Notes: a model not told the origin generated them from the sequence alone. A stretch of 64,000 bases of DNA from a virus (IMGVR_UViG_3300002220_000062:27454-91453); one strand, 5' to 3'. Shown: positions 1 through 46,315, counted from the stretch's first letter. A program made the numbers and translations.

Positions 1-75
1 GGTGTAGGTATGTTAGATGAAGAGATAGCAGAATCATTAATAGATGAAAAATTCTATGAAGACCTTTAAATTATA
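1..75 (+). CDS. 3' end of an upstream gene (partial)
   Basis: Frame 1 is open from the window edge (GVGMLDEEIAESLIDENSMKTFKL) to TAA at 73-75, just before the ATG at 80. Confidence 0.5.
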
Positions 76-79
76 AGAA

Positions 80-688
80 ATGAGTAAAAGCTTAGTGCTG
101 AATTTTGAAGTACTAATGAATTTTAACATTTCTGTTGAGGAATTCTTATTCTTATATAATATATCGGAAGATAAACCATTACATAAGGAGAATATAGACT
201 TAGAAAAACTACAACAACAACAATTAATAAAAATAGTAACAGAAGACGAAGAAATAAAATATTTTTTAAGAGAAAAATCTATACAATTAATAGAATTTCT
301 GACAATAGAGATGGAAAATTCTTTAGAGTCAAGTGAAAAAAATATAAAAAAATCAAATCGTGTTATTAACCAGGAAATAGCTGGAAGAATAGAAGAATTT
401 AGAAACAAATGGAAAGGATTAAAATCTGGTTCTATGGGTAGCCAAAAATCTTGCCAAGTGAAATTACTAAGATGGATGAAAGAAAATCCAAGTTATTCAT
501 TTGATGACATTTTAAAAGCAGCTAATATCTATTTAGAAAGTTTGAATGGTGACTACAGATTTTTACAGCGAGCTGATTATTTCATATTTAAACAGGAAAA
601 TAATCGTGAGGAATCTTCTAGATTATCTGCATTTGTAGATGAGATAGGATTAACCAATACCGATGATTGGACTACAAATTTAAATTAA
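80..688 (+). CDS. Hypothetical protein upstream of the helicase, possibly replication initiator or helicase-loader-like
   Basis: 202-aa ORF; function inferred from position before the DnaB-like gene only. Confidence 0.5.
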   Translation: MSKSLVLNFEVLMNFNISVEEFLFLYNISEDKPLHKENIDLEKLQQQQLIKIVTEDEEIKYFLREKSIQLIEFLTIEMENSLESSEKNIKKSNRVINQEIAGRIEEFRNKWKGLKSGSMGSQKSCQVKLLRWMKENPSYSFDDILKAANIYLESLNGDYRFLQRADYFIFKQENNREESSRLSAFVDEIGLTNTDDWTTNLN

Positions 689-714
689 TAATATGAAAAA
701 CAACTTAAAGTAAA

Positions 715-870
715 ATGAGTTTATATACAAGAGTCTATGATGATATTGTAGATAGAAGAAAAAGGTTACTCAATGGGCAAATAAATTGCATCCCTTGGGG
801 ATTACCTAGATTTGAAAATGAATTACCTGGTATTGAACGAGGTAAGTATTATTTAATAACAGCAAATAGT
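715..870 (+). CDS. dnaB: DnaB-like replicative helicase, exon 1
   Basis: ATG at 715 reads MSLYTRVYDDIVDRRKRLLNGQINCIPWGLPRFENELPGIERGKYYLITANS, the usual DnaB segment leading into Walker A. It ends in U at 870 and the unspliced frame hits TAG at 874-876. Absent from the ORF track. Confidence 0.9.
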
Positions 871-1172
871 TTTTAGTTTATAATAATTTAATTTGTAAAC
901 AAACAGAAGCTACGCTAGATGGTGACATCTAGATGATTATCCTTTGAATTGCTGGAAACTCTTAACAAGTAATGTTGAAGACAATCAGCAGCCAAGCTTA
1001 GAAATAAGAAGGTTCAACGACTAGTGCAATAGAGCACGTACACTATAAGTTAATGATAGTGGAAGCGGAGGACATCTCTATGAGATGAAGATATAGTCTA
1101 GTCTATATGGAAACATATAGCAGTTCATAAGAGAACGTATATAAGAGTTACGTCTTATATAGAATATAAACG
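871..1172 (+). ncRNA. Group I intron 1 (IA-like, 302 nt, no ORF)
   Basis: P1 exon TAGT/GCTA (909-912) with U-G at the splice site; P2 CTAGATG-GTGA-CATCTAG; P3 TCCTTTG (940-946)/CGGAGGA (1066-1072); P4 TGCTG (950-954)/CAGCA (986-990); P7 GACTA (1019-1023)/TAGTC (1094-1098) with AAGATA J8/7; two extra hairpins after P7; P9 CTATATG-GAAA-CATATAG; terminal G1172. Confidence 0.92.
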
Positions 1173-1181
1173 AAAGTGGGT
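1173..1181 (+). CDS. dnaB: DnaB-like helicase, 9-nt micro-exon 2 (K-V-G)
   Basis: AAAGTGGGT follows the terminal G of intron 1, ends in U, and restores the Walker A sequence ANSKVGKT in frame. Confidence 0.88.
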
Positions 1182-1255
1182 AGAATTTGCCCCTCTGGTT
1201 AGTAATAATTAGAGCAAACTCAGAATCCTAGAAATAGGGGTTAATTAATAATTAA

Positions 1256-1813
1256 ATGGAAATAATAAAAGCAGGTCAAAAACCAAAAATGGGAGATTTT
1301 GTATATGTTGTACAAGATTATACTAGTTTTACATATAAAGATGCTAATGGTAATTGTAAACATTGTTATCTTGATAATATGTCTTCACTTTGTTACACCT
1401 TAAAAGATGCCGATGAAAAGAAACAAGCAGAAATACTTGAATTATTTAAAAGTATTTTTGATGTTAATTCAAAAGTTACCTTTGGTGTAAATCTAACAAG
1501 AATGGAGTATATTGAGACTCTTAAAAAACATTTTACTTTAATATCTTGTGTAGAAGTTCCAACAGGATATGGAACACGTCAGAAACAATATCATGCTATA
1601 TTTTTTACAAATTCTATGGCTAGAGATTATGGTGGTACTTATAGAGGTAGATTAAATAAAGAAGGTGTAATTGTAAGCACTATGAAACATAGGAAAACTA
1701 TAAATCCTGGTGATAAAATTGACACTGTAATTAATGAAAGTGATATTGAAAAGATAATGTCTTATAAGAGTAAATATCATCTACAAAAATTTCTTAGAAC
1801 AAAAATTAATTAG
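1256..1813 (+). CDS. Intron-2-encoded hypothetical protein A (between the P3 and P4 5' strands)
   Basis: 185-aa ORF with an A-rich leader; no HNH, GIY-YIG or LAGLIDADG motif seen; stop TAG abuts the P4 5' strand. Confidence 0.8.
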   Translation: MEIIKAGQKPKMGDFVYVVQDYTSFTYKDANGNCKHCYLDNMSSLCYTLKDADEKKQAEILELFKSIFDVNSKVTFGVNLTRMEYIETLKKHFTLISCVEVPTGYGTRQKQYHAIFFTNSMARDYGGTYRGRLNKEGVIVSTMKHRKTINPGDKIDTVINESDIEKIMSYKSKYHLQKFLRTKIN

Positions 1814-1847
1814 CTAACGGGGAAACCCTTTATAAAAATAAGTAAAA

Positions 1848-2147
1848 ATGAAAAAAACTACAACAGCGTGTTGTGCGTTATGTCAAATTAATAATGTAAA
1901 TAATGATACAACTATTGAAGAGTTAGAATATGCAATTGACATATTAACTAATCAGAAAGAGAAAAATACAGAAGTAGGTATTACAACAGGTAATGGACAA
2001 ACTTCAGTATTTGTTATAGTTTCTCCTGGAGAATATGTACTAAGTAGAAATCTAAAAAAATTAGGATTTGAACTTAAACACACATTTGAAAGAAGAAAAG
2101 GATATCCACCTGTTGGAGAATTAGAGATGTATATTAAAAATCTTTAA
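1848..2147 (+). CDS. Intron-2-encoded hypothetical protein B (P5 loop), possibly a degenerate GNAT-like fold
   Basis: 99-aa ORF; CCALCQI near the N-terminus and NLKKLGFELKHTF resembling the C-terminal GNAT motif; fold call is weak. Confidence 0.7.
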   Translation: MKKTTTACCALCQINNVNNDTTIEELEYAIDILTNQKEKNTEVGITTGNGQTSVFVIVSPGEYVLSRNLKKLGFELKHTFERRKGYPPVGELEMYIKNL

Positions 2148-2149
2148 TT

Positions 2150-2713
2150 ATGTGGGAGACTTATGAATGGGGAAGGTCAAGATATGACATTCTCTATAAA
2201 GATGGTAGTACAGAAAAGATAAAGAGTGCATGTTTTGCAGCACTTACTCGTACTACTAATAGCACAATTAAGCGTATAAAATTATATGATTTTAAATGTA
2301 AACCAACTATAGAATATCGTAAATGGTATTTAGAATATGTTAGTGATATGTTACAACTAGAAGAGGTAGAAATTACTGAAGACTATATAGCATTTGACGC
2401 ATATGATAATAAAAACAAAAATATGTTAGTATTATCATTATTTAGATTTTTATATGAACAACTTGGTTATGTTACACCTATAATTCAAACACATGAGGTA
2501 TTTTTAGAACCTTTAAGAAATGGAGAATGTGAATATATAGATAAATTAGAAAGATTTTGTTACTTCTATAGTAAAATAGAAACAAAAAAAGCTTATTATT
2601 CTACTATACATTCTTGGTATCCTAAAACTACTGTTATTAAATCAACAGAAGATTTCTTAAAGATTAAAAAACTACCATCTGTTAATTCATTTTTTACTTA
2701 TGAAAAAAACTAA
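2150..2713 (+). CDS. Intron-2-encoded hypothetical protein C (P5 loop)
   Basis: 187-aa ORF starting 2 nt after ORF B; its TAA is part of the P5 3' strand. Confidence 0.8.
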   Translation: MWETYEWGRSRYDILYKDGSTEKIKSACFAALTRTTNSTIKRIKLYDFKCKPTIEYRKWYLEYVSDMLQLEEVEITEDYIAFDAYDNKNKNMLVLSLFRFLYEQLGYVTPIIQTHEVFLEPLRNGECEYIDKLERFCYFYSKIETKKAYYSTIHSWYPKTTVIKSTEDFLKIKKLPSVNSFFTYEKN

Positions 2714-2978
2714 AGACAATCCCGTGCCGTCACTTGATTTTAATATAATAAAAACTAATACATTTAAAGAAGATGATGAAATATGTCATATAAGAAATTT
2801 TATGGTAGGTTTACCTTACTTTTTTAAAGCAACTGATTATGATGTAAAACATTATTCAGGAAAAAATGGTATTTATTTGTTAAAACAATACGGTGTAGAG
2901 ACTAACAATGAGAAACCTAAATCAGGACACATGACAGAAATATCATGGGGTAGTAAAAAACATCCTGATGAAGATTAG
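2700..2978 (+). CDS. Intron-2 ORF D overlapping the ribozyme core (P4' to P8)
   Basis: 92 codons open across P5', P4', P6, P7, P3' and P8; ATG overlaps the end of ORF C; the long P6 loop looks coding. Confidence 0.5.
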   Translation: MKKTKDNPVPSLDFNIIKTNTFKEDDEICHIRNFMVGLPYFFKATDYDVKHYSGKNGIYLLKQYGVETNNEKPKSGHMTEISWGSKKHPDED

Positions 2979-3065
2979 GTTTATGAGATAGTCCGAACTA
3001 TATGGTGACATATAGAGCCAAACAGAAATGATTTGGCTGTGAAAATTAAACAAAAATTAATAAAA

Positions 3066-3566
3066 ATGAAATTATATTTAAAAGATTATAAAAAAAAATC
3101 AACTACATGTGTAAAAAGTTTTTTATTAGATTATTATAAGAATGTTTTCAGTTTAGAAGGAACACCTGCTACATACTTTAGTCCTATATGTGACGAAAAA
3201 GATTTGCAATGTTCTGCTAGAAAATCACGTTCATTTACAGATATGTATTATTTAACTAAAACTTATTTTCCAACATTAACAGAAAAAACTTTTACTAAGA
3301 AATTAGTAGAAGTAATGAAAGTGCATAAGTTAAAATTCTTATTTTGTAATGGTGCAAAAAAAACAGTAATACATGCCAGTTTTGGTACTAATAATCAAAG
3401 AACAAGTAACTTTTTTAAGTCATTAGTATTTGATTATTGTGGTTTATTAAAGACTCAATATAATCTAAAAGGTAATGGAGAGCATTCTATAATAGATGTA
3501 ATAGAATTTTCTGGTTATAAAAATGATGTAATTGAAAAAGAACTTAACCGTTTAAGGAACACATAA
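3066..3566 (+). CDS. Intron-2-encoded hypothetical protein E (after P9.1)
   Basis: Likely start is ATG 3066 because the TTG at 3033 lies inside the P9.1 stem; no recognisable endonuclease motif; ends 8 nt before the 3' splice site. Confidence 0.78.
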   Translation: MKLYLKDYKKKSTTCVKSFLLDYYKNVFSLEGTPATYFSPICDEKDLQCSARKSRSFTDMYYLTKTYFPTLTEKTFTKKLVEVMKVHKLKFLFCNGAKKTVIHASFGTNNQRTSNFFKSLVFDYCGLLKTQYNLKGNGEHSIIDVIEFSGYKNDVIEKELNRLRNT

Positions 3567-3574
3567 CAAAATTG

Positions 3575-4510
3575 AAAACTCAAATAGCCGATTGGTTATT
3601 TTTGTACAATACTATTCAACAAGTTATTGAAAAATCTCTAAATATCAAATTAAAGATATTTTATTTTAGTTTAGAAATGTCTAAGGAAGAAAAGATGCTA
3701 GCAGCTTTCTCTAATATTATATATATTAAAGAAGGTATAAGAATAGCTCCAAAGGACCTTAGAAGTACTAAATCAGATAAAATATTAAGTGAAGAGACTT
3801 TAGAGTTAATATCAAAATATAAACCATATTTCGACAAAATTGAAGAAATAGTTGAATTTATAGATGATATTAGAAATCCCACAGGTATTTATAAATTTGT
3901 TAGAAGTTACGCTATTGCAAATGGTGTACAACATAAGAAAACTATAAATATTAAGGGTACATTAACAGAAATCGATGATTACTATGAACCAAACGACCCT
4001 GAAGAGTACGTTATGGTTTTTATTGACCATATAAGTTTGATTTCTACCGAGGAAGAAGGAGGACAAAAGATGAATTTGCATCAATCTATTGTCAAGCTTT
4101 CTTCAGATTACCTTATTAGATTACGAAATAAATATAAATACATTCCAGTTGTTATTCAACAACAAGCATCTGCTCAAGAATCCGTAGAGAATATGAAAGT
4201 CGGAAGACTTAAACCTTCAATGGATGGATTAGGAGACTGTAAGCTTACCCAAAGGGATGCAAATGTTATATTGGGACTATTTAGTCCTTTTCGTCATGAA
4301 TTAAGAGAATACCAAGGATATGATATTACCTTTTTTAAGGATAATATTAGATTTCTAGAAGTATTAGGTGGAAGAGAAGGTGGTGGTGGTACAGTATGTC
4401 CACTGTTCTTTGATGGAGCAGTGAATTATTTTAAAGAGTTACCAAAACCAATGGACCAAGAAGGGCTTAGAAGCGTTTATAGTTACATTGAGAAAACAAT
4501 TAAAAAATAA
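3575..4510 (+). CDS. dnaB: DnaB-like helicase, exon 3
   Basis: Begins KTQ (second half of Walker A); FYFSLEMS, VFIDHISLI (Walker B), VVIQQQ and QRDANVILGL match SF4 helicase motifs; spliced product is 366 aa. Confidence 0.92.
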   Translation, partial: KTQIADWLFLYNTIQQVIEKSLNIKLKIFYFSLEMSKEEKMLAAFSNIIYIKEGIRIAPKDLRSTKSDKILSEETLELISKYKPYFDKIEEIVEFIDDIRNPTGIYKFVRSYAIANGVQHKKTINIKGTLTEIDDYYEPNDPEEYVMVFIDHISLISTEEEGGQKMNLHQSIVKLSSDYLIRLRNKYKYIPVVIQQQASAQESVENMKVGRLKPSMDGLGDCKLTQRDANVILGLFSPFRHELREYQGYDITFFKDNIRFLEVLGGREGGGGTVCPLFFDGAVNYFKELPKPMDQEGLRSVYSYIEKTIKK

Positions 4511-4834
4511 ATGGGAGAATTAGGAGAGAGAAGAAATGAAGGAAAATTAAAATGGTCTTTAGTAAGTTGGAAAGCTTTAGAACCAATGGTTAAAGTATTA
4601 ATGTTCGGAGCAGAAAAATACGATGACCACAATTGGAAGAAAGGACTGAATTACACTGAAACGTGTGAATCTTTACAAAGACATTTAAATTCTTTTATTG
4701 AAGGAGAGGATAATGACCAGGAATCTGGCATTCCCCATGTAGGACACATTCTATGTAATGCAATGTTTTTATCGTATATGTCTAAATATAGAAAAGACTT
4801 AGATGATAGATTTATTGATGAAAACTTCAAATAA
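4511..4834 (+). CDS. dATP/dGTP diphosphohydrolase-domain protein (DUF5664-like)
   Basis: GKLKWSLV, VLMFGAEKYDDHNWKKG, SLQRHL and DQESGIPHVGHILCNAMFL family pattern. Confidence 0.8.
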   Translation: MGELGERRNEGKLKWSLVSWKALEPMVKVLMFGAEKYDDHNWKKGLNYTETCESLQRHLNSFIEGEDNDQESGIPHVGHILCNAMFLSYMSKYRKDLDDRFIDENFK

Positions 4835-4873
4835 CACCCTTAATAGTGGTGGTTGGACGGAGAAAATGATAGA

Positions 4874-5644
4874 ATGGAAATTAAATTACCAAATACAAAA
4901 GAACCAGCATCAAGAGTAAATCCTAAAACAGTAATTGTATTTAGTCAACCTAAGATGGGTAAAACCACAATAGTAGCAGGACTAGATAATTGCTTAATTA
5001 TAGATTTAGAAAAAGGTACTGATTTTGTTAATGCTTTAAAATATGATGTAATTAGAACAGCGGAATCTGAAAATAAATTACCAATCGTAATCTTAAAGCA
5101 GCTAATAGAAACAATTAAAACAGCTAATGCTGATAAAAAAGGCTATGTGTACAATTTCATAGCCATTGATACAGTTACAGCATTAGAAGATATTGTTTTA
5201 CCATTAGCAAATAAAATGTATAGAGATACCTCTATTGGACGTAATTGGGTAGGAGAAGATGTTACTTCCCTTCCTAATGGTGCAGGATATCGTTATACAA
5301 GAGAGGCGCTTAAAATGGTCCTAAATGAATTAGAAAGTATTTGCGATACTCTAATTATATTAGGTCATACTAAGGATAAACTAGTAGAAAAAGAAGGCAA
5401 AGAAATGAACGAACGAGGCTTAGACCTAACAGGCAAAATGGCTGGTATTTTATGTTCAAAAGTAGATGCCATAGGTTATCTTTATCGCCATGAAAATGAG
5501 ACAATTATTAATTTTCAATCTTCTGAAAGTTTATTATGTGGAGCACGTAGTGAACATTTAAAAGGAAAGGAAATAGTAGTTGCAAAATCCGATGGGACAG
5601 GAAATATCGCAATAGATTGGTCCCAAATATTTATTAATAAGTAA
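4874..5644 (+). CDS. AAA-family ATPase (Sak4/AAA_24-like recombinase)
   Basis: Walker A SQPKMGKTT, IIDLEKG, Walker B IAIDTVT, ILGH; ATG 4874 preferred to TTG 4853. Confidence 0.8.
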   Translation: MEIKLPNTKEPASRVNPKTVIVFSQPKMGKTTIVAGLDNCLIIDLEKGTDFVNALKYDVIRTAESENKLPIVILKQLIETIKTANADKKGYVYNFIAIDTVTALEDIVLPLANKMYRDTSIGRNWVGEDVTSLPNGAGYRYTREALKMVLNELESICDTLIILGHTKDKLVEKEGKEMNERGLDLTGKMAGILCSKVDAIGYLYRHENETIINFQSSESLLCGARSEHLKGKEIVVAKSDGTGNIAIDWSQIFINK

Positions 5645-5667
5645 AATTTTAAAACGAAAGAAAGATT

Positions 5668-6243
5668 ATGTTTGATTTGAATGAAAAGAAATTTGGAGGA
5701 ACCGTTATTTTTAATAATGGACAAGCTGGTATAGCTAAAGGTGTAGAAATTTCTGTGGAGAAAAGGCAAGCGGATGAGCCAGATACATATCCTAATTATA
5801 AATTAGTGGTATCTGATGGTGTATCAAAAGTAAATCAAGGATTTTATTATCCTAAATCTGACCCTAATAAGAGTGAGGAACAAAATGACCAAGCTGCAGT
5901 TAGAGAAGTTGGTAGAATTATGCATATAGCTAGAGCCGTAATGGGTGCTAACTATACATTTCCTAACGTATCTAGTGCAAAAGAAGCATTTGATGTATTA
6001 TTTAATTTAATACGTGAAAATGCAGGTGGTAAAACATTTAATGTCTTTGTTACTTATGGAACAACTGGATATCCAGACAAATATCTTAAATTGAGATATT
6101 TTAATTTTATTGAACCAAGCGATACTGCAGTTAGTAGATTAAAAGCTACTCCTTCAGATTTAATGGAGAGATTAGAACAAGATGCTCCAGTGTCTGGTTC
6201 ATTGGATACCCCAGCTGCCCCTGAGATAGAGAAATGGTCATAA
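5668..6243 (+). CDS. Putative single-stranded DNA-binding protein
   Basis: Lies between the Sak4-like ATPase and the primase; acidic low-complexity tail ending in W; function inferred. Confidence 0.45.
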   Translation: MFDLNEKKFGGTVIFNNGQAGIAKGVEISVEKRQADEPDTYPNYKLVVSDGVSKVNQGFYYPKSDPNKSEEQNDQAAVREVGRIMHIARAVMGANYTFPNVSSAKEAFDVLFNLIRENAGGKTFNVFVTYGTTGYPDKYLKLRYFNFIEPSDTAVSRLKATPSDLMERLEQDAPVSGSLDTPAAPEIEKWS

Positions 6244-6257
6244 TTAAATAATTAATT

Positions 6258-6280
6258 GGGGGAGGAAACTCCCCCTTTTT
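6258..6280 (+). terminator. Rho-independent terminator
   Basis: GGGGGAG-GAAA-CTCCCCC stem followed by TTTTT. Confidence 0.85.
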
Positions 6281-6293
6281 ATACCGTAAAATT

Positions 6294-7331
6294 ATGATAA
6301 ACTTAAACAAAAAATTAATAACAAAACAAGACGTTTTAAATGAAACTACAGACGTAGATATCTATAGGTTTTATATAGGTGGTTATATAGATTTTTCTCA
6401 CAAAATAAAATCACCATTAAGAAAAGATGATATTAGACCATCATTAGGCTTCTTTAAAGGAGATAATGGAGAAATATGTTTTAATGATTTTGTATTAGGT
6501 GGTGGAGATTGTATAAAATTTGTACAACTTCTTAAAGGATTAGATTTCTTTGAAGCTCTTAGCTTAATAGCAATTGATTTTGGTTTTGCTGATAAATATA
6601 TCGTTAAAAAGATTAAAGGAAGTGAAACAGTTTATGATTCTTCAAAATATGAAAGTAGAGACAAAATTATTAGTAAAATAGTTGCGTTTAATCTAGGTAT
6701 AAAAAGAAGAGCATGGACAGCATATGATTATGCCTTTTGGTTACAATTTGGTATTGATTCACAAACATTAGAAAAATATAATGTTGTTCCTGTATCCTAT
6801 ATCTTTATGAATGGTTTACCTATATTAGCAGAAAAATACGCATATGCATTTATAGAATTTAAAGACGGAGTAGAGACATATAAAATTTATCAACCGTTTA
6901 GTAAAAGTTATAAATGGTTAAGTAATCACAATGGTTCGGTATGGCAAGGATGGAGTCAATTACCAGAAAAAGGTAAAAGACTTATCATTACTAAATCTTT
7001 AAAAGATGTAATGGCAATTGATTACATTACAGGTGTACCTGTTGTATCTTTACAATCTGAGAGTGTGATGCCAAAAGCTAGTATAATACAAGAATTAAGA
7101 AATAGATTTGAACAAATTTGGATTCTTTATGATAATGATTTTGATAAAGAAGTAAATTGGGGTCATAAATTTGGAGCAGAAATAGCTGAAGAAAATTTTA
7201 TACCTCAAATAGAAATTGATTCAATTTATAAGTCCAAAGACTTCAGTGATTTAGTTAAAAATAAATCAGCAGCAGTAGCTAGTGAAGTATTACGACAATT
7301 AATAACTGATTATGAAACAGCACCATTTTAA
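6294..7331 (+). CDS. DNA primase (DnaG/TOPRIM, crAss-type)
   Basis: SPLRKDDIRPS N-terminal region, IITKSLKDVM, ILYDNDFD TOPRIM DxD motif, KDFSD. Confidence 0.85.
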   Translation: MINLNKKLITKQDVLNETTDVDIYRFYIGGYIDFSHKIKSPLRKDDIRPSLGFFKGDNGEICFNDFVLGGGDCIKFVQLLKGLDFFEALSLIAIDFGFADKYIVKKIKGSETVYDSSKYESRDKIISKIVAFNLGIKRRAWTAYDYAFWLQFGIDSQTLEKYNVVPVSYIFMNGLPILAEKYAYAFIEFKDGVETYKIYQPFSKSYKWLSNHNGSVWQGWSQLPEKGKRLIITKSLKDVMAIDYITGVPVVSLQSESVMPKASIIQELRNRFEQIWILYDNDFDKEVNWGHKFGAEIAEENFIPQIEIDSIYKSKDFSDLVKNKSAAVASEVLRQLITDYETAPF

Positions 7332-12707: not shown

Positions 12708-14483
12708 ATGGATAATTTAGTAAAAATAAATGAAATGGTGGTAACTATTGATGGTACCACTAAGCCTAAGCAAGATTGTCGCAGAATGGGTGGAGAATTC
12801 TACCTAAAAGGAGAAATCAATGTTGAAAACTCTGGACAATGCTATTATATCAATGGAAAGTATTATAAATATAATACTGGATATATAGTATTTGACCATA
12901 GAGTAGGTCAATACATAATTAAAAATACTGATAAACTTCAAGAAGGGGTAGTCCGAATTGAAGCAAATGGTAATTTAGTTATGGGTTTCTTTACACGTGA
13001 AGAGAATGGAGCTATAATTACAACACTAGAGGACCCAACTGGTAATACTTATGTATGTTTGAATAAAGAAATTCTAGAAAATACGCACTATATAGAAAAT
13101 TTATACACAGGTAGATATTCTCACAGATTATTTACAAGAGTAGAACATTTTTTAAATCCAGGCAATGTTTCTAGTACTTTAAAAAACACGCTACCTTACG
13201 ACTCTAGGGGAGCTATGGATGACTTAATGGCATACCATAAAAATCATCATAAACCAAAAATTAGTAAAGAGGTAAAACTCTATAGTCCAATATTAGGGGA
13301 CTTAACTTTTGGTGTAGAGTATGAGACTACAAAAGGACAAATTCCACCTACAAAATGTAAAGAATTAGGTCTTATTGCTTTGAAAGATGGAAGTATAGTA
13401 GGATTAGAATATGCTACTATTCCACTTCAAGGAGAGAAAGGGTTACAAACTTTGATTAATGGTATTGTAGAACTAAGAAAATATACTTCTTATGATAAGG
13501 ACTGCTCATTACATTTCCATATTGGTAATATACCAAGAACAGAAGAATTTTTCTTAGCTGTTTGGAAAGTGTTATGTACATTAGAAAATCCAATGTTTGG
13601 ATTATTCCCTCTTTATAAAAAATATAATTTTGGAGTTAAAAGAAAACATTACACAAAACCATTACCAATAGTTGAAACATTATTTCAAATGGATAAAGTT
13701 ATTACTAAAGATAATATTAAATCGAATTTTGGAATTCTTTATAATTATTTATCAATGGGACAACCTTATTCATCTGTTAAAAATGATTTAAACAATGTAA
13801 TGTCTCACCCATCTGACCCTCACGGGAATAGTAAGTGGAATATTAGAAGTAGATATCATTGGGTTAATTTAATACCATTGTTATTTGGTAATAAAGAAAC
13901 AATTGAATTTAGACTTCATACTCCAACTTATGATTTAGACAAGATAGTAAATTATCTTGTTTTATGTACATCAATTATAAATTTTGCTAAGAACAATACA
14001 AAAGCTATATTAACTCAACCTGAAATTCTTATGAATTTAAATTTGGGTGATGTAGTATATAAAATTAGTGGTCAAATGAATTCTGTAGAAATCAATAGAT
14101 TTGCTGATTATGTATATGCTTATATTGGTCATAGAAGAGATTATAACTATATGGAAAGTAGCCGTGGAGATTTAATTGGTAATGAAGATGGTTTCAGAGT
14201 TAAAAACAAAATACCTTGGGCTGTAGCAAATACTATGGAAGTTGTATTATCTAAAATTCCGTCAAATAGAAAAAGAGATTCTTTATCAGGATATGCTAAT
14301 CAATTTAATTGGAATGTAGCACAGATTAGAAATGCTGCAGAAGACCATGTAAGAAATGTTGAAGCAAGAAGAGGCGGTGGTATACAATTCTTTGGAAATG
14401 GAGAACCCCAAGTAGTTCCTCAAGCTGTTCAAGATATTGACCCATTTGATTTAATAGTAGAAAACGATGGTCAAGAACATTAG
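12708..14483 (+). CDS. Putative amidoligase (glutamate-cysteine ligase-like fold)
   Basis: FGVEYET, DGSI.GLEYAT, CSLHFHIG, SRYHWVNL, TIEFRLH. Confidence 0.85.
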   Translation: MDNLVKINEMVVTIDGTTKPKQDCRRMGGEFYLKGEINVENSGQCYYINGKYYKYNTGYIVFDHRVGQYIIKNTDKLQEGVVRIEANGNLVMGFFTREENGAIITTLEDPTGNTYVCLNKEILENTHYIENLYTGRYSHRLFTRVEHFLNPGNVSSTLKNTLPYDSRGAMDDLMAYHKNHHKPKISKEVKLYSPILGDLTFGVEYETTKGQIPPTKCKELGLIALKDGSIVGLEYATIPLQGEKGLQTLINGIVELRKYTSYDKDCSLHFHIGNIPRTEEFFLAVWKVLCTLENPMFGLFPLYKKYNFGVKRKHYTKPLPIVETLFQMDKVITKDNIKSNFGILYNYLSMGQPYSSVKNDLNNVMSHPSDPHGNSKWNIRSRYHWVNLIPLLFGNKETIEFRLHTPTYDLDKIVNYLVLCTSIINFAKNNTKAILTQPEILMNLNLGDVVYKISGQMNSVEINRFADYVYAYIGHRRDYNYMESSRGDLIGNEDGFRVKNKIPWAVANTMEVVLSKIPSNRKRDSLSGYANQFNWNVAQIRNAAEDHVRNVEARRGGGIQFFGNGEPQVVPQAVQDIDPFDLIVENDGQEH

Positions 14484-15183
14484 TCAAGGAGATTACGTAT
14501 TAGACATAGATTATGAATCATTATTAGGAAAGGATTGGGCAGACGTTCTTAGAGAAAATCTGATTAATACTGAATATATGAAAAATTTAATGATTTTTCT
14601 AAATGAGTCATATAAAAAGGGGGGTATTTACCCCTCTAAGTCTAATGTGTTTAAAGCTCTTGAATCTGTAGATTTTGCAGATGTACGAGTAGTAATGATT
14701 GGTAGGGAACCCTACAATGATGGTAATGCAACTGGTATTCCTTTAGCTAATTATGATAAGTATGGGAAGAGATTCTCAGACGAGTTACTTAAATACTTTA
14801 AAGGAATAGAAACATCCATATATGATGGGATTAAATTATATCAAAACCCAGAATTAGATGAATTATCACCACAAGGTGTATTATTTTTAGATGCAGCATT
14901 AACATCAACAGGGACTAAATTAGAACATTTAGTATACTGGAGAAATTTCATAAGACAGGTAATAATAAGTATCCAGGAATGGATACCAGATGTAGTATTT
15001 GTATTTATGGGAGAAGAAGCAAAATATTTTGCTCAATATGTAGAGAATCCAAATTATAAATTATTTTGTGAGCATCCTTATGAATCTGTACAATTAAAAA
15101 AACCTTGGGATGGTGAAGTTCTTAATGAAGTAAACATTGTCTTAAAAACTATGAATAATGATGACAATCCTATAGTTTGGTAA
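14467..15183 (+). CDS. ung: Uracil-DNA glycosylase family 1-like protein with divergent active site
   Basis: IYPSKSNVFKAL, VRVVMIGREPY (canonical GQDPY), QGVLFLDAALT (canonical QGVLLLN..LT), VFVFMG.EA, EHP. Confidence 0.8.
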   Translation: MVKNISQGDYVLDIDYESLLGKDWADVLRENLINTEYMKNLMIFLNESYKKGGIYPSKSNVFKALESVDFADVRVVMIGREPYNDGNATGIPLANYDKYGKRFSDELLKYFKGIETSIYDGIKLYQNPELDELSPQGVLFLDAALTSTGTKLEHLVYWRNFIRQVIISIQEWIPDVVFVFMGEEAKYFAQYVENPNYKLFCEHPYESVQLKKPWDGEVLNEVNIVLKTMNNDDNPIVW

Positions 15184-15205
15184 GTATTAATTTAAACAGA
15201 AAAAG

Positions 15206-15256
15206 ATGATGATGTGGATTCCAGGTAATAATATTAGTAAAAAAATTCTGAAATAA
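15206..15256 (+). pseudogene. Orphaned 5' remnant of the resolvase gene
   Basis: Reads MMMWIPGNNISKKILK*, resembling the start MIFIKGNVPSLKNSK of 15861-16328. Confidence 0.5.
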
Positions 15257-15288
15257 TTAGGAATTGTGAATTTAATTTTGTATATTTG
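15257..15288 (+). promoter_or_regulatory. Bacteroidota-type promoter upstream of the HNH gene
   Basis: TTAGGAA-N17-TATATTTG (TAnnTTTG -7 element). Confidence 0.75.
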
Positions 15289-15306
15289 TATAAAAATATA
15301 AATATA

Positions 15307-15864
15307 ATGGAATTAATTAAAAAAGGACTAACTTTAGATGAAAAAAATCAAATCAAGAAAATAGATTATGAAAGAATTTGTAAAAAATGTGGAATAAAAC
15401 AATCATTAATAAAATTTTCTTGTAAAAAAGAAAAAAATGGATTATATTATTTTAATTATACATGTAACAAATGTGAATATAAACGAAAGTTAAAAATGCA
15501 TAATGGAAGTATAATTTCATACAATGCAACCCAGACTTATAAAGAAAATTTTACTATAGAAGGAAGAGCATCTATGTTAAGAAATAGATGTAAACAAAGA
15601 GCTAAAAAATATAATTATGATTTTTCTTTAACCAAAGAATATATAATTTCACTTTTAGAAAATGGGGTATGTGAAAAAACTAATATTAAATTAATAATAG
15701 ATGATTCTACTTACCATCCATATGCTCCTTCTATAGATAGAATTGATAATAATAAAGGTTATACTAATGATAATATTCAAGTTACTTGTATGATATACAA
15801 TTTCTGTAAAAATAAATTTTCCGAAGAACAGGTAAATGAATTTTTTAAAGATATGAGATTATGA
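15307..15864 (+). CDS. Free-standing HNH-like homing endonuclease
   Basis: CKKC...CNKC Zn finger; PSIDRIDNNKGYTNDNIQVTCMIYNFCK; ATG 15307 preferred because TTG 15286 lies in the promoter. Confidence 0.85.
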   Translation: MELIKKGLTLDEKNQIKKIDYERICKKCGIKQSLIKFSCKKEKNGLYYFNYTCNKCEYKRKLKMHNGSIISYNATQTYKENFTIEGRASMLRNRCKQRAKKYNYDFSLTKEYIISLLENGVCEKTNIKLIIDDSTYHPYAPSIDRIDNNKGYTNDNIQVTCMIYNFCKNKFSEEQVNEFFKDMRL

Positions 15865-44437: not shown

Positions 44438-46315
44438 TTATTTCTTCTTTTTTGTAGTTCTAGGAATTGCACCATTTGCATTCATAAAGAAATCTTGTAA
44501 TTGGTCTTCTGTTAAAAGTGTTGGAGCCCCAAAATTTCCATCTTCATCTTTTTGATTTATCATATAAGACATTTCTTGACCACCTTGATTAACTCTATTA
44601 GTTAAATATACTACTTGTGTATTAGAAGGTTTTCCATTGGGAAGTGGTATTGTGTATGGTATATCTGGTAATTTATTAGTATTAACAAAAGTGTCATTAA
44701 ATTCAGTATCAGCAGCATATTCAGGTGAGTTTAATTCTGTAGCATCCCTACTAACTAATATAGTTTTTAATTTTCCATCTTCGGCTCTGTATTGCATTTT
44801 TAATGGAGAAACAAATAACTTTTTATTTTGTTGTGTTCCGTATTTATCAGTATTAAAATTTTTTGGACTATAATAACCAGAGTAAGTTAAAGTTTTGAAA
44901 TTCTTTTTAATTTCATCAGGTAAATCTTCATAAGACATTACCTTTCCATCTATAGAATATTTTCTACTTTCAGGATTAGCTTGTACAAGGTCTGCAATTT
45001 CAGCTCTAGTTGTTTTAGTAGCCCCTACACTTCTATCACCATATGTTTTTACAAAATCATCTGTTATTATGATATCTTGCCGTTGTATTGATTTATTAAT
45101 ATTATAATAATCTCTTACAGTTTTAACACCTAATTTAGAATATGGGGATATACCTTGTAAAGCTTTGTTATTTTGTTGTAAAGCTTTAAATATTTTATCA
45201 TACTCTATTCGTTCTTTAGCACTTAATTGATTTGTAATACTGGCAGGTGTAGGTGGTTCTGTACTGTTTGTAACAACTAAAGCACCATTTATATCTTGTA
45301 CTGTTCTTTTAGGAGCTACATTTACTCCACCTAATACATTATCAAGTTTATTAACAACAGCACTAGAATATACTTCTACACTTGAATCTTGGTCATACTC
45401 ATATCTAAGTGGAGATACACTATCAGTATTAACACCTAATTCTGCTGGAGATTTATACCCAGATATTTCAGAACTTGTTTGTTTTGAATAAGCTTGTTTT
45501 TCAAACACTTTATTTAATCCTTCAACTTCTTGTAAAGCTTGTGCTGGAGTTTTTCTTTGTTCTACTAAAGACCTACCAATTTCAGAATTTGGATTATTAA
45601 TTTGATTATTAATATAATCAACTGCGTATTGTAAATTATCTATATTAGAAGAATATGCTGTTTTAGCACCTTTTGTTAATATATATTGTCCTGGATTATT
45701 TGGGTCATTTGTTATAATATTAGAAGTTAATGAACCTATATCACTAGATTTTACACCAGCCTTAACAAATAAATCTTGTAATTTATCAGTAACATTAATA
45801 TAATTTGGACTATATCGTTCTTGTATATTAGTTATATTACCTGTTGCTGCAAATTCATCAGCATATTTCTTTTCTACATCTTTCCAATTCTCAGCTATAG
45901 CATCTGCAGGGTATCCTAATTTAGTTGCATTAGCAATATAACTTGCTTTATTAAGTTCTAAAGTCTTTTTAGCTGTTTGTATTTTACCTAAAGTACCTGT
46001 AGGACTTATAGCTTGTTGGTACTCTTTATTAAGTCTTATAAAATCAGTTTTTGATGTTGGTGAGAACCCCTTAGTAGCTAAATCTTCTGCTTGCTTACTC
46101 ATTTTAGTGTATAATTCAGCTTGTTTTTGTTTTGCTACATCACTATGTATAAGTAATGGGTCTATTTGAGCCAATTGAGTTTCTATACCCGCTCTAGCTT
46201 CATCTAATTGATTATGTTGCCCTCTCATATAAGAAGGAGCAACCATTAGTTCCTGTAATGTACGAGGTGTATATCTAGCAGGTTGTATATTTGTATAACG
46301 ATTCACTGTTGCCAT
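44438..46315 (-). CDS. Putative virion cargo/ejection protein
   Basis: 625 aa, no Cys seen, located upstream of the RNAP cluster. Confidence 0.6.
   Translation of the reverse strand: MATVNRYTNIQPARYTPRTLQELMVAPSYMRGQHNQLDEARAGIETQLAQIDPLLIHSDVAKQKQAELYTKMSKQAEDLATKGFSPTSKTDFIRLNKEYQQAISPTGTLGKIQTAKKTLELNKASYIANATKLGYPADAIAENWKDVEKKYADEFAATGNITNIQERYSPNYINVTDKLQDLFVKAGVKSSDIGSLTSNIITNDPNNPGQYILTKGAKTAYSSNIDNLQYAVDYINNQINNPNSEIGRSLVEQRKTPAQALQEVEGLNKVFEKQAYSKQTSSEISGYKSPAELGVNTDSVSPLRYEYDQDSSVEVYSSAVVNKLDNVLGGVNVAPKRTVQDINGALVVTNSTEPPTPASITNQLSAKERIEYDKIFKALQQNNKALQGISPYSKLGVKTVRDYYNINKSIQRQDIIITDDFVKTYGDRSVGATKTTRAEIADLVQANPESRKYSIDGKVMSYEDLPDEIKKNFKTLTYSGYYSPKNFNTDKYGTQQNKKLFVSPLKMQYRAEDGKLKTILVSRDATELNSPEYAADTEFNDTFVNTNKLPDIPYTIPLPNGKPSNTQVVYLTNRVNQGGQEMSYMINQKDEDGNFGAPTLLTEDQLQDFFMNANGAIPRTTKKKK

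Follow-up and report, generated by a model that had tools for sequence, protein, structure and literature searches.

Group I introns are well known from conserved motifs in essential genes of phages, where one gene may hold several of them; multi-intron phage genes include orf142 and nrdE of Twort, the DNA polymerase gene of SPO1-like phages, and td, nrdB and sunY of T4. Here we describe a helicase gene in a 64,000-nucleotide (nt) stretch of viral DNA (IMGVR_UViG_3300002220_000062:27454-91453, the whole of which is called the window below), whose Walker A motif, or P-loop, is split by two tandem group I introns around a micro-exon of 9 nt. The locus resembles the known phage intron genes in that group I ribozymes lie in a conserved, essential gene of replication or nucleotide metabolism, and in that GIY-YIG open reading frames (ORFs) occupy peripheral loops, in this case in relatives of the upstream intron (intron 1). 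Unlike the known multi-intron genes, it has its introns just 9 nt apart, within the Walker A codons of a DnaB-type helicase.

Among crAss-like phages, the Delta and Zeta groups have group I introns (PMC7886860), and the targets given there are MCP, PolB, primase, ATP_43b and TerL; the helicase is not listed. The clade considered here differs from these cases in being a marine Akihdevirus-like branch, and among named phages Cellulophaga phage phi14:2 (Crassvirales, Steigviridae, Akihdevirus) stands closest to the window. Exons of less than about four codons, flanked by group I or group II introns, are regular in mitochondrial genes (PMC10352661), with a cox1 exon of 1 base pair (bp) as an extreme (PMC5436844). 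Like the micro-exon, such organellar mini-exons (fungal and protist mitochondrial, placozoan cox1) encode conserved residues and are missed by gene callers, but they belong to organelle genomes and often depend on protein-assisted or trans-splicing, whereas the present one lies in a phage gene, and because alleles with one intron or none occur alongside it in the same population, its assembly is traceable. A literature search of incomplete coverage, notably of the Twort intron papers, found no report of a phage mini-exon this short, nor of introns in a crAss-type helicase or in phi14:2. The two-intron arrangement of the P-loop is mechanistically ordinary; it is the exon that is unusually short.

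The gene is made up as follows.

Positions 715 to 870, + strand: helicase exon 1, with an ATG start and 52 codons to ..YYLITANS (from the ORF list; aligned in the protein alignment A1).
Positions 871 to 1172, + strand: intron 1, a 302-nt group I intron without an ORF (from RF00028, fold and phage homologues).
Positions 1173 to 1181, + strand: the micro-exon AAAGTGGGT, 9 nt encoding K-V-G of Walker A, contiguous with the flanking exons in 33 uninterrupted relatives and in contig L069.
Positions 1182 to 3574, + strand: intron 2, a 2393-nt group I intron with its core dispersed around five ORFs (from conserved patches, RF00028 and covariation).
Positions 3575 to 4510, + strand: helicase exon 3, KTQIADW.., with 311 codons and a stop, encoding the RecA-like core after the P-loop.

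The original prediction, made from this sequence by a model, had proposed these exons, and its coordinates are exact when read against the sequence and the ORF list. Joined, they give a continuous frame of 366 amino acids (aa; 52+3+311) for a DnaB-like protein with YYLITANS-KVG-KTQIADW across the junctions, again as predicted. Within the Walker A segment A-N-S-K-V-G-K-T, intron 1 stands between the Ser and Lys codons, and intron 2, 9 nt downstream of the intron 1 site, between the Gly codon and the catalytic Lys codon. The reading frame of exon 1 runs directly into TTT-TAG, and mechanical ORF calling finds a single ORF at the 3' part, 3572-4510 with a TTG start, which agrees with the earlier remark that only a TTG-started fragment is visible there. 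On the comparative evidence, we think it very probable that both elements are spliced group I introns and that they yield the 366-aa helicase.

The anatomy and the exact junctions can be read directly from relatives. The exon-3 protein retrieved 66 loci from IMG/VR, and these were then scanned with exon-1 and exon-3 peptides. In 33 of these related loci, the homologues of exon 1 and exon 3 are exactly 9 nt apart, the 9 nt encode K-[VIAGSD]-[GA] and the gene is uninterrupted; since so many uninterrupted loci have exactly this spacing, the agreement with the proposed junctions is far more than chance would give. About 15 other loci and phi14:2 have intron 2 only, as an insertion of 0.8-3.6 kb that begins right after AAAGTGGGT. 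The double insertion of the window recurs in eight distinct loci (L002, L003, L012/L016, L028/L046, L030, L032, L037), always in the order of an insertion after AATAGT, then 9 nt, then a second insertion. Among these double-intron loci the micro-exon reads AAAGTGGGT, AAAGTAGGT, AAAGTTGGT or AAAATTGGT (K-V/I-G), variation that is synonymous or conservative only and thus fits a coding constraint. In A1, the two long exons of the window leave exactly three empty columns, which hold KVG in the other members. The P-loop therefore aligns to the uninterrupted homologues (33 loci, A1) without a gap, as the original prediction had expected. A need for more or different residues between TANS and KTQ in homologues would have told against the prediction, which passed this test.

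These data also bear on another way of dividing the locus, in which 871-3574 would be one composite intervening sequence, either a twintron or a single 2.7-kb intron, and the 9 nt would not be an exon. The two elements are indeed adjacent, and default gene calling sees a single long gap. However, excision of 871-3574 would remove the K-V-G that is present in 33 of 33 uninterrupted homologues and in DnaB structures, the roughly 15 loci with intron 2 alone have it starting exactly after the 9 nt, and the terminal G of intron 1 immediately precedes these. Each element also has a complete P1-P9 set. We regard a composite element as practically negligible beside two separate introns.

A scan of JGI metagenome contigs for the spliced type of junction found contig L069 (Ga0075167_10965470, 1-220), which is intron-free, with AATAGT-AAAGTGGGT-AAAACAC unbroken, and shares about 96-97% identity with L043, which has intron 2 only, and with L037, which has both introns. 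A scan of bacterial genome contigs with the L069 exon-1 peptide gave zero copies. The second contig from the junction scan, L070, is an ordinary intron-free allele. At another locus (L026, 4293-6000) an intron of the intron-2 family lies 4 nt upstream of the usual site (AAGGT-intron-AGGA AAA), a third insertion point within the same three codons, and its product would still read K-V-G-K-T. Such a shift could have arisen by reverse splicing, with the guide directing the intron to a GGU close by, or by sliding of the intron.

The predicted spliced product is a DnaB-type replicative helicase, with its P-loop intact, of an uncultured crAss-like marine phage. Exon 1 is 58-96% identical in aa sequence to the corresponding part of relatives, and exon 3 matches the DnaB-like family phrog_19 (E 1e-6) and is 53% identical to g029 of phi14:2. 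The Pfam family DnaB_C (PF03796) is matched by 12 of the 15 members of A1, which are full-length relatives (best E 2e-11); L062, for example, scores 32.9 bits where the cut-off is 27, and exon 3 of the window alone scores 16.2 bits, below that cut-off. In a profile of A1, ..vtANSKVGKT.. aligns to ..vaARPSVGKT.. of the DnaB structures 2vye and 2r6a. No DnaB_C-like region was found besides the helicase gene in the 91-kb genome, the IMG/VR virus record of 91,453 bases from which the window is taken. All 366 codons are open in the window, and the helicase is 96-98% identical to that of L002.

Intron 1 has the following elements.

Positions 906 to 912: internal guide sequence (IGS).
Positions 915 to 932: P2.
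Positions 1019 to 1023 with 1094 to 1098: P7.
Positions 1024 to 1037: P7.1.
Positions 1041 to 1061: P7.2.
Positions 1073 to 1087: P8.
Positions 1103 to 1120: P9.
Positions 1123 to 1136: P9.1.
Positions 1138 to 1161: P9.2.
Position 1172: terminal G.

In a scan of 855-1195, intron 1 matches the Rfam family RF00028 (Intron_gpI) with 99.5 bits (E 8e-27; gathering threshold 50), and the match covers the whole model (1-253) at window positions 872-1120; an RF00028 search of the phage's own genome returned intron 1 again. Group I introns from phages of Staphylococcus (Twort/K-like, annotated Intron_gpI), Bacillus and Enterococcus and from T4-like phages match the region with 75-85% identity. Its fold has a z-score of -4.2, and P1 is formed in the centroid structure, where UAGU (867-870) and the following UUU pair with GAAGCUA (906-912); P2, P7.1, P7.2, P8, P9, P9.1 and P9.2 form as well. 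In the RF00028 alignment, the P7.1 and P7.2 hairpins appear as an insertion between P7 and P3'. Since these hairpins are the mark of the subgroup, we judge intron 1 by inspection to be IA2-like. The copy in the window has no + strand ORF of at least 40 aa, whereas intron 1 of L002, L028, L030, L032 and L037 carries a 195-253-aa GIY-YIG+NUMOD1 protein in the P1 loop. Going by the names of its Pfam families, this protein is a classic putative homing endonuclease of the I-TevI type, and intron 1 of the window is thus an ORF-less derivative.

The elements of intron 2 are spread over a much longer sequence.

Positions 1186 to 1188: P10 strand.
Positions 1189 to 1192: IGS.
Positions 1193 to 1214: P2.
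Positions 1219 to 1222 with 2909 to 2912: P3.
Positions 1227 to 1238: GAAA hairpin.
Positions 1240 to 1249 with 1805 to 1814: stem enclosing ORF-A.
Positions 1817 to 1821 with 2721 to 2725: P4.
Positions 1828 to 1832 with 2711 to 2715: P5.
Positions 2726 to 2730 with 2890 to 2894: P6.
Positions 2900 to 2904 with 2989 to 2993: P7.
Positions 2914 to 2920 with 2975 to 2981: P8.
Positions 2998 to 3015: P9.
Positions 3017 to 3037: P9.1.
Positions 3038 to 3051 with 3550 to 3563: P9.2.
Position 3574: terminal G.

Compared with phi14:2, intron 2 is conserved only in short patches amid unrelated ORFs; these patches are the strands of the group I core, and they are also kept across at least 20 loci. A compact homologue at the same site (L017, 761 nt) has the core in one piece and matches the full RF00028 model with 67.1 bits, and its alignment puts AAAGUGGGU, the micro-exon, in P1. 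P1 of intron 2 in the window is GGGU/GCCC, with the final 4 nt of the micro-exon (GGGU) as its 5' strand. Both 5' exons thus end in U paired with G in P1 (U870·G909 in UAGU/GCUA of intron 1, U1181·G1189 in intron 2), and both introns end in G (G1172, G3574), just as had been noticed in the original prediction. P10 pairs UUU (1186-1188) with AAA (3575-3577), and in phi14:2 it extends to 5 bp, GAUUU with AAAUC.

Covariation is seen in several helices. P3 occurs in four variants (CTCA/TGAG, CTCT/GGAG, TTCC/GGAA and CTCC/GGAG), with CTGGA/TCCAG or TCGGA/TCCGA in a second subfamily, that of L017. P7 has two variants, GACTA/TAGTC and GACTG/CAGTC, and P4 changes in a compensatory manner between the subfamilies, ACGGG/CCCGT versus ACGGT/ACCGT. 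RNAalifold, applied to 11 sequences, predicts P7 and P8 unaided, with double changes in 5 of 17 pairs. The predicted catalytic core of intron 2 from P3 to P8 is therefore backed by compensatory changes.

As a lead only, intron 2 may be structurally related to the td intron of T4 (IA2), in which P1 pairs GGGU with a GCC-type guide, the P4-P6 stretch is of the type ACGGGGAA...CAAUCCCGUGC, and the P9 hairpin is followed by further 3' hairpins. Unlike td, intron 2 of the window type lacks P7.1/P7.2 between P7 and P3'. It also has two extra hairpins between P3 and P4, a GAAA-capped one (1227-1238) and a 10-bp stem with ORF-A in its loop, and five ORFs in four loops, none of them a recognisable endonuclease. 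In the second subfamily, J3/4 has the usual short form.

The ORFs of intron 2 are these.

Positions 1256 to 1813, + strand: ORF-A, 185 aa, enclosed in the loop of the stem that lies between P3 and P4; it matches neither a Pfam nor a PHROG family.
Positions 1848 to 2713, + strand: ORF-B (1848-2147) and ORF-C (2150-2713), in the P5 loop.
Positions 2700 to 2978, + strand: ORF-D, 92 aa, running through P5', P4', P6, P7, P3' and P8.
Positions 3066 to 3566, + strand: ORF-E, 166 aa from ATG, in the P9.2 loop.

A search for an endonuclease among ORFs A-E gave no significant Pfam or PHROGs match, and the ORFs show no similarity to those in the phi14:2 intron. ORF-D overlaps the core itself: its ATG lies 12-18 nt upstream of P5' and its stop inside P8', an arrangement conserved in L001 (the phi14:2 locus), L004-L012, L035 and L061. 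The part of ORF-D in the P8 loop is Cys-rich, with CxxC pairs, in most relatives, and the copy in the window has no Cys there. The ORF-E family is present in most copies of intron 2 and also occurs free-standing; its profile has no match among PDB sequences, and an AlphaFold2 model of ORF-E (pLDDT 83) has no Foldseek match, the winged-helix-like VIA matches being weak (Z of at most 4.6). In intron-free relatives (L039 6930-7484, L024 2425-2970 and L054 6944-7730), the genes that follow immediately after the helicase include free-standing homologues of ORFs B, C and E, so that these genes are found either beside the helicase or inside the loops of its intron.

The strongest indirect argument for splicing comes, in our assessment, from phi14:2. 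Its record splits the helicase between two genes annotated as unrelated, g024 (64 aa, 'hypothetical') and g029 (280 aa, 'DnaB'). Comparison of the locus (L001 695-4420, equal to NC_021806.1 12982-16707) with the relatives indicates one helicase gene with an unannotated 2616-nt group I intron (L001 863-3478; record positions 13150-15765) that encloses g025-g028, and the predicted spliced product reads ..TANSKVG-KSQITDQ.. across the junction. The single helicase gene of this cultured, plaque-forming phage thus has intron 2 at the site that it occupies in the window. As phi14:2 is viable with intron 2, its interrupted gene must function in vivo, unless the phage can do without this helicase.

Another view is that the helicase is dead or permanently split, that the introns are decayed relics, and that the phage uses the host DnaB or separate fragments. 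The loss of the endonuclease ORF from intron 1, the swelling of intron 2 to 2.4 kb and five ORFs, and the score of exon 3 on its own, which stays under the DnaB_C cut-off, could all be read as decay. But the 366 codons are open and nearly the same as in L002, every core element of both ribozymes is intact, the micro-exon has changed only in synonymous or conservative ways, and more than 20 diverged lineages, the viable phi14:2 among them, retain the architecture. We consider loss of the gene very unlikely, and a working, spliced helicase remains our preferred interpretation.

Several observations weigh against splicing of both introns and should be set beside the evidence above. Neither an Rfam scan of positions 1-6000 with E up to 1 nor one of the whole window at the gathering threshold gave a match, yet a scan of 341 bases gives the 99.5 bits of intron 1; short stretches matched strongly, and the empty result is an artefact of the speed filters. 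Intron 2 of the window reaches just 29.3 bits on RF00028 (E 9e-6), for the P8-J8/7-P7'-P9 part only, because the ORFs interrupt the core; intron 2 of L035 is similar with 30.9 bits (gathering threshold 50). P1 of intron 2 is only 4 bp long, and group I introns do not usually have two hairpins and an ORF between P3 and P4. The micro-exon forms no P10 with intron 1, as the ..CAGAA located 5' of the guide's G is unable to pair with AAAGUG. Among 2029 homologous proteins, none is nearly identical to the spliced product, and all protein-database matches of at least 76% identity are truncated ORFs of about 312 aa. Finally, L069 is either a natural empty-site allele or an assembled spliced transcript, that is, DNA or cDNA.

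We infer both the occurrence of splicing and its possible order from these features. The helicase would be made from a single pre-mRNA with two autonomous group I ribozymes, each with its own guide, core and terminal G. Each intron would pair the end of its 5' exon with its own guide, UAGU with GCUA in intron 1 and GGGU with GCCC in intron 2; guanosine attack would open each intron, release would occur after G1172 and G3574, and ligation of 715-870, 1173-1181 and 3575-4510 would give the mRNA for the 366-aa protein. The 9-nt micro-exon would be long enough, because intron 2 needs its last four bases only and intron 1 makes no P10. The ribozymes would thus not compete for the 9 nt, and either order of splicing is chemically possible. 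If intron 1 were removed first, intron 2 would meet an ordinary, longer 5' exon. If intron 2 reacted first, the 3'-OH set free would belong to the 9 nt trailing intron 1, which the 4-bp P1 keeps in place, and the usual ligation could follow.

The original prediction had suggested that the dual role of the micro-exon, as 3' exon of intron 1 and P1 partner of intron 2, may make splicing ordered; this idea found no support, given that intron 1 has no P10 and intron 2 uses GGGU only. A broader form of it holds that splicing is obligatorily ordered, or that the micro-exon is frequently skipped to give an in-frame TANS-KTQ helicase whose P-loop is broken and which regulates or poisons the hexamer. 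The statement that skipping stays in frame is right as arithmetic (156 nt, 9 nt and an in-frame exon 3). To skip the micro-exon, though, would require intron 2 to use exon 1, whose UAGU pairs poorly with the guide GCCC, or the core of intron 1 to accept the 3' splice site of intron 2; intron 1 has no P10 to either downstream exon, and no order is forced by the sequence. Obligatory order or frequent skipping appears highly improbable to us, and the exon-skipped 'poison' helicase as such is pure speculation.

With regard to history, the intron states are patchy on the helicase tree, whose well-supported branches force no fewer than five changes of the state 'both introns'. Intron 1 of the window is 93% identical to that of L012, with helicases about 76% identical, but only 72% identical to that of L002, with helicases 96-98% identical, and this mismatch indicates that intron 1 moves independently of its host gene. 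The original prediction of two independent invasions is borne out to this extent: the introns belong to different lineages, intron 2 often stands alone, and intron 1 has been exchanged horizontally. On the tree, intron 1 was not seen without intron 2 (nine rows have both introns, and none of the 25 intron-free rows has intron 1), and an IMG/VR search for the pattern of intron 1 end, 9 nt and exon 3 gave no match, whereas the control with the start of intron 2 gave five. These observations fit a scheme with intron 2 first and intron 1 later. Intron 2 would have arrived first and is now widespread in the phage clade; a mobile intron 1 would then have invaded intron-2-bearing alleles several times, with later loss of its endonuclease gene in the genome of the window.

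A further reading of this co-occurrence, for which we would claim no great likelihood, is that intron 1 may be a dependent, 'second-storey' invader that homes only into alleles already carrying intron 2. In that case, the GIY-YIG endonuclease, or the ribozyme context, would recognise a composite of the last exon bases and the 5' end of intron 2. If this dependence were true, the 9-nt exon would result, as a fixed by-product, from the targeting of one mobile element's edge by another.

The locus calls for a correction of annotation in the whole clade. Akihdevirus-like helicases, that of phi14:2 included, are called as P-loop-less fragments of 280-312 aa, and of the 120 closest proteins in the database, about three quarters are of the truncated length. 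A standard Rfam scan of the 64-kb window misses an intron of 99.5 bits, so phage introns are probably under-counted; AT-rich phage introns in particular are likely under-reported by routine annotation. The relatives also provide a natural series, from alleles with the site empty through those with intron 2 alone or with both introns to one with a shifted insertion, which permits study of how two ribozymes fold and splice 9 nt apart, and of the dependence of one intron on another. Because phi14:2 and its host are cultured, intron 2 is directly testable.

Elsewhere in the window, a J8/7-P7 motif at 45808-45816 on the - strand was considered as a third intron and rejected as chance, with Rfam empty there and the motif count within the shuffle range. 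The replication module downstream of the helicase (4511-7331) looks ordinary, with a dATP/dGTP diphosphohydrolase N-terminal domain protein (PF18909, E 3e-32), a Sak4-like annealing protein (phrog_124) and a primase (phrog_12622).

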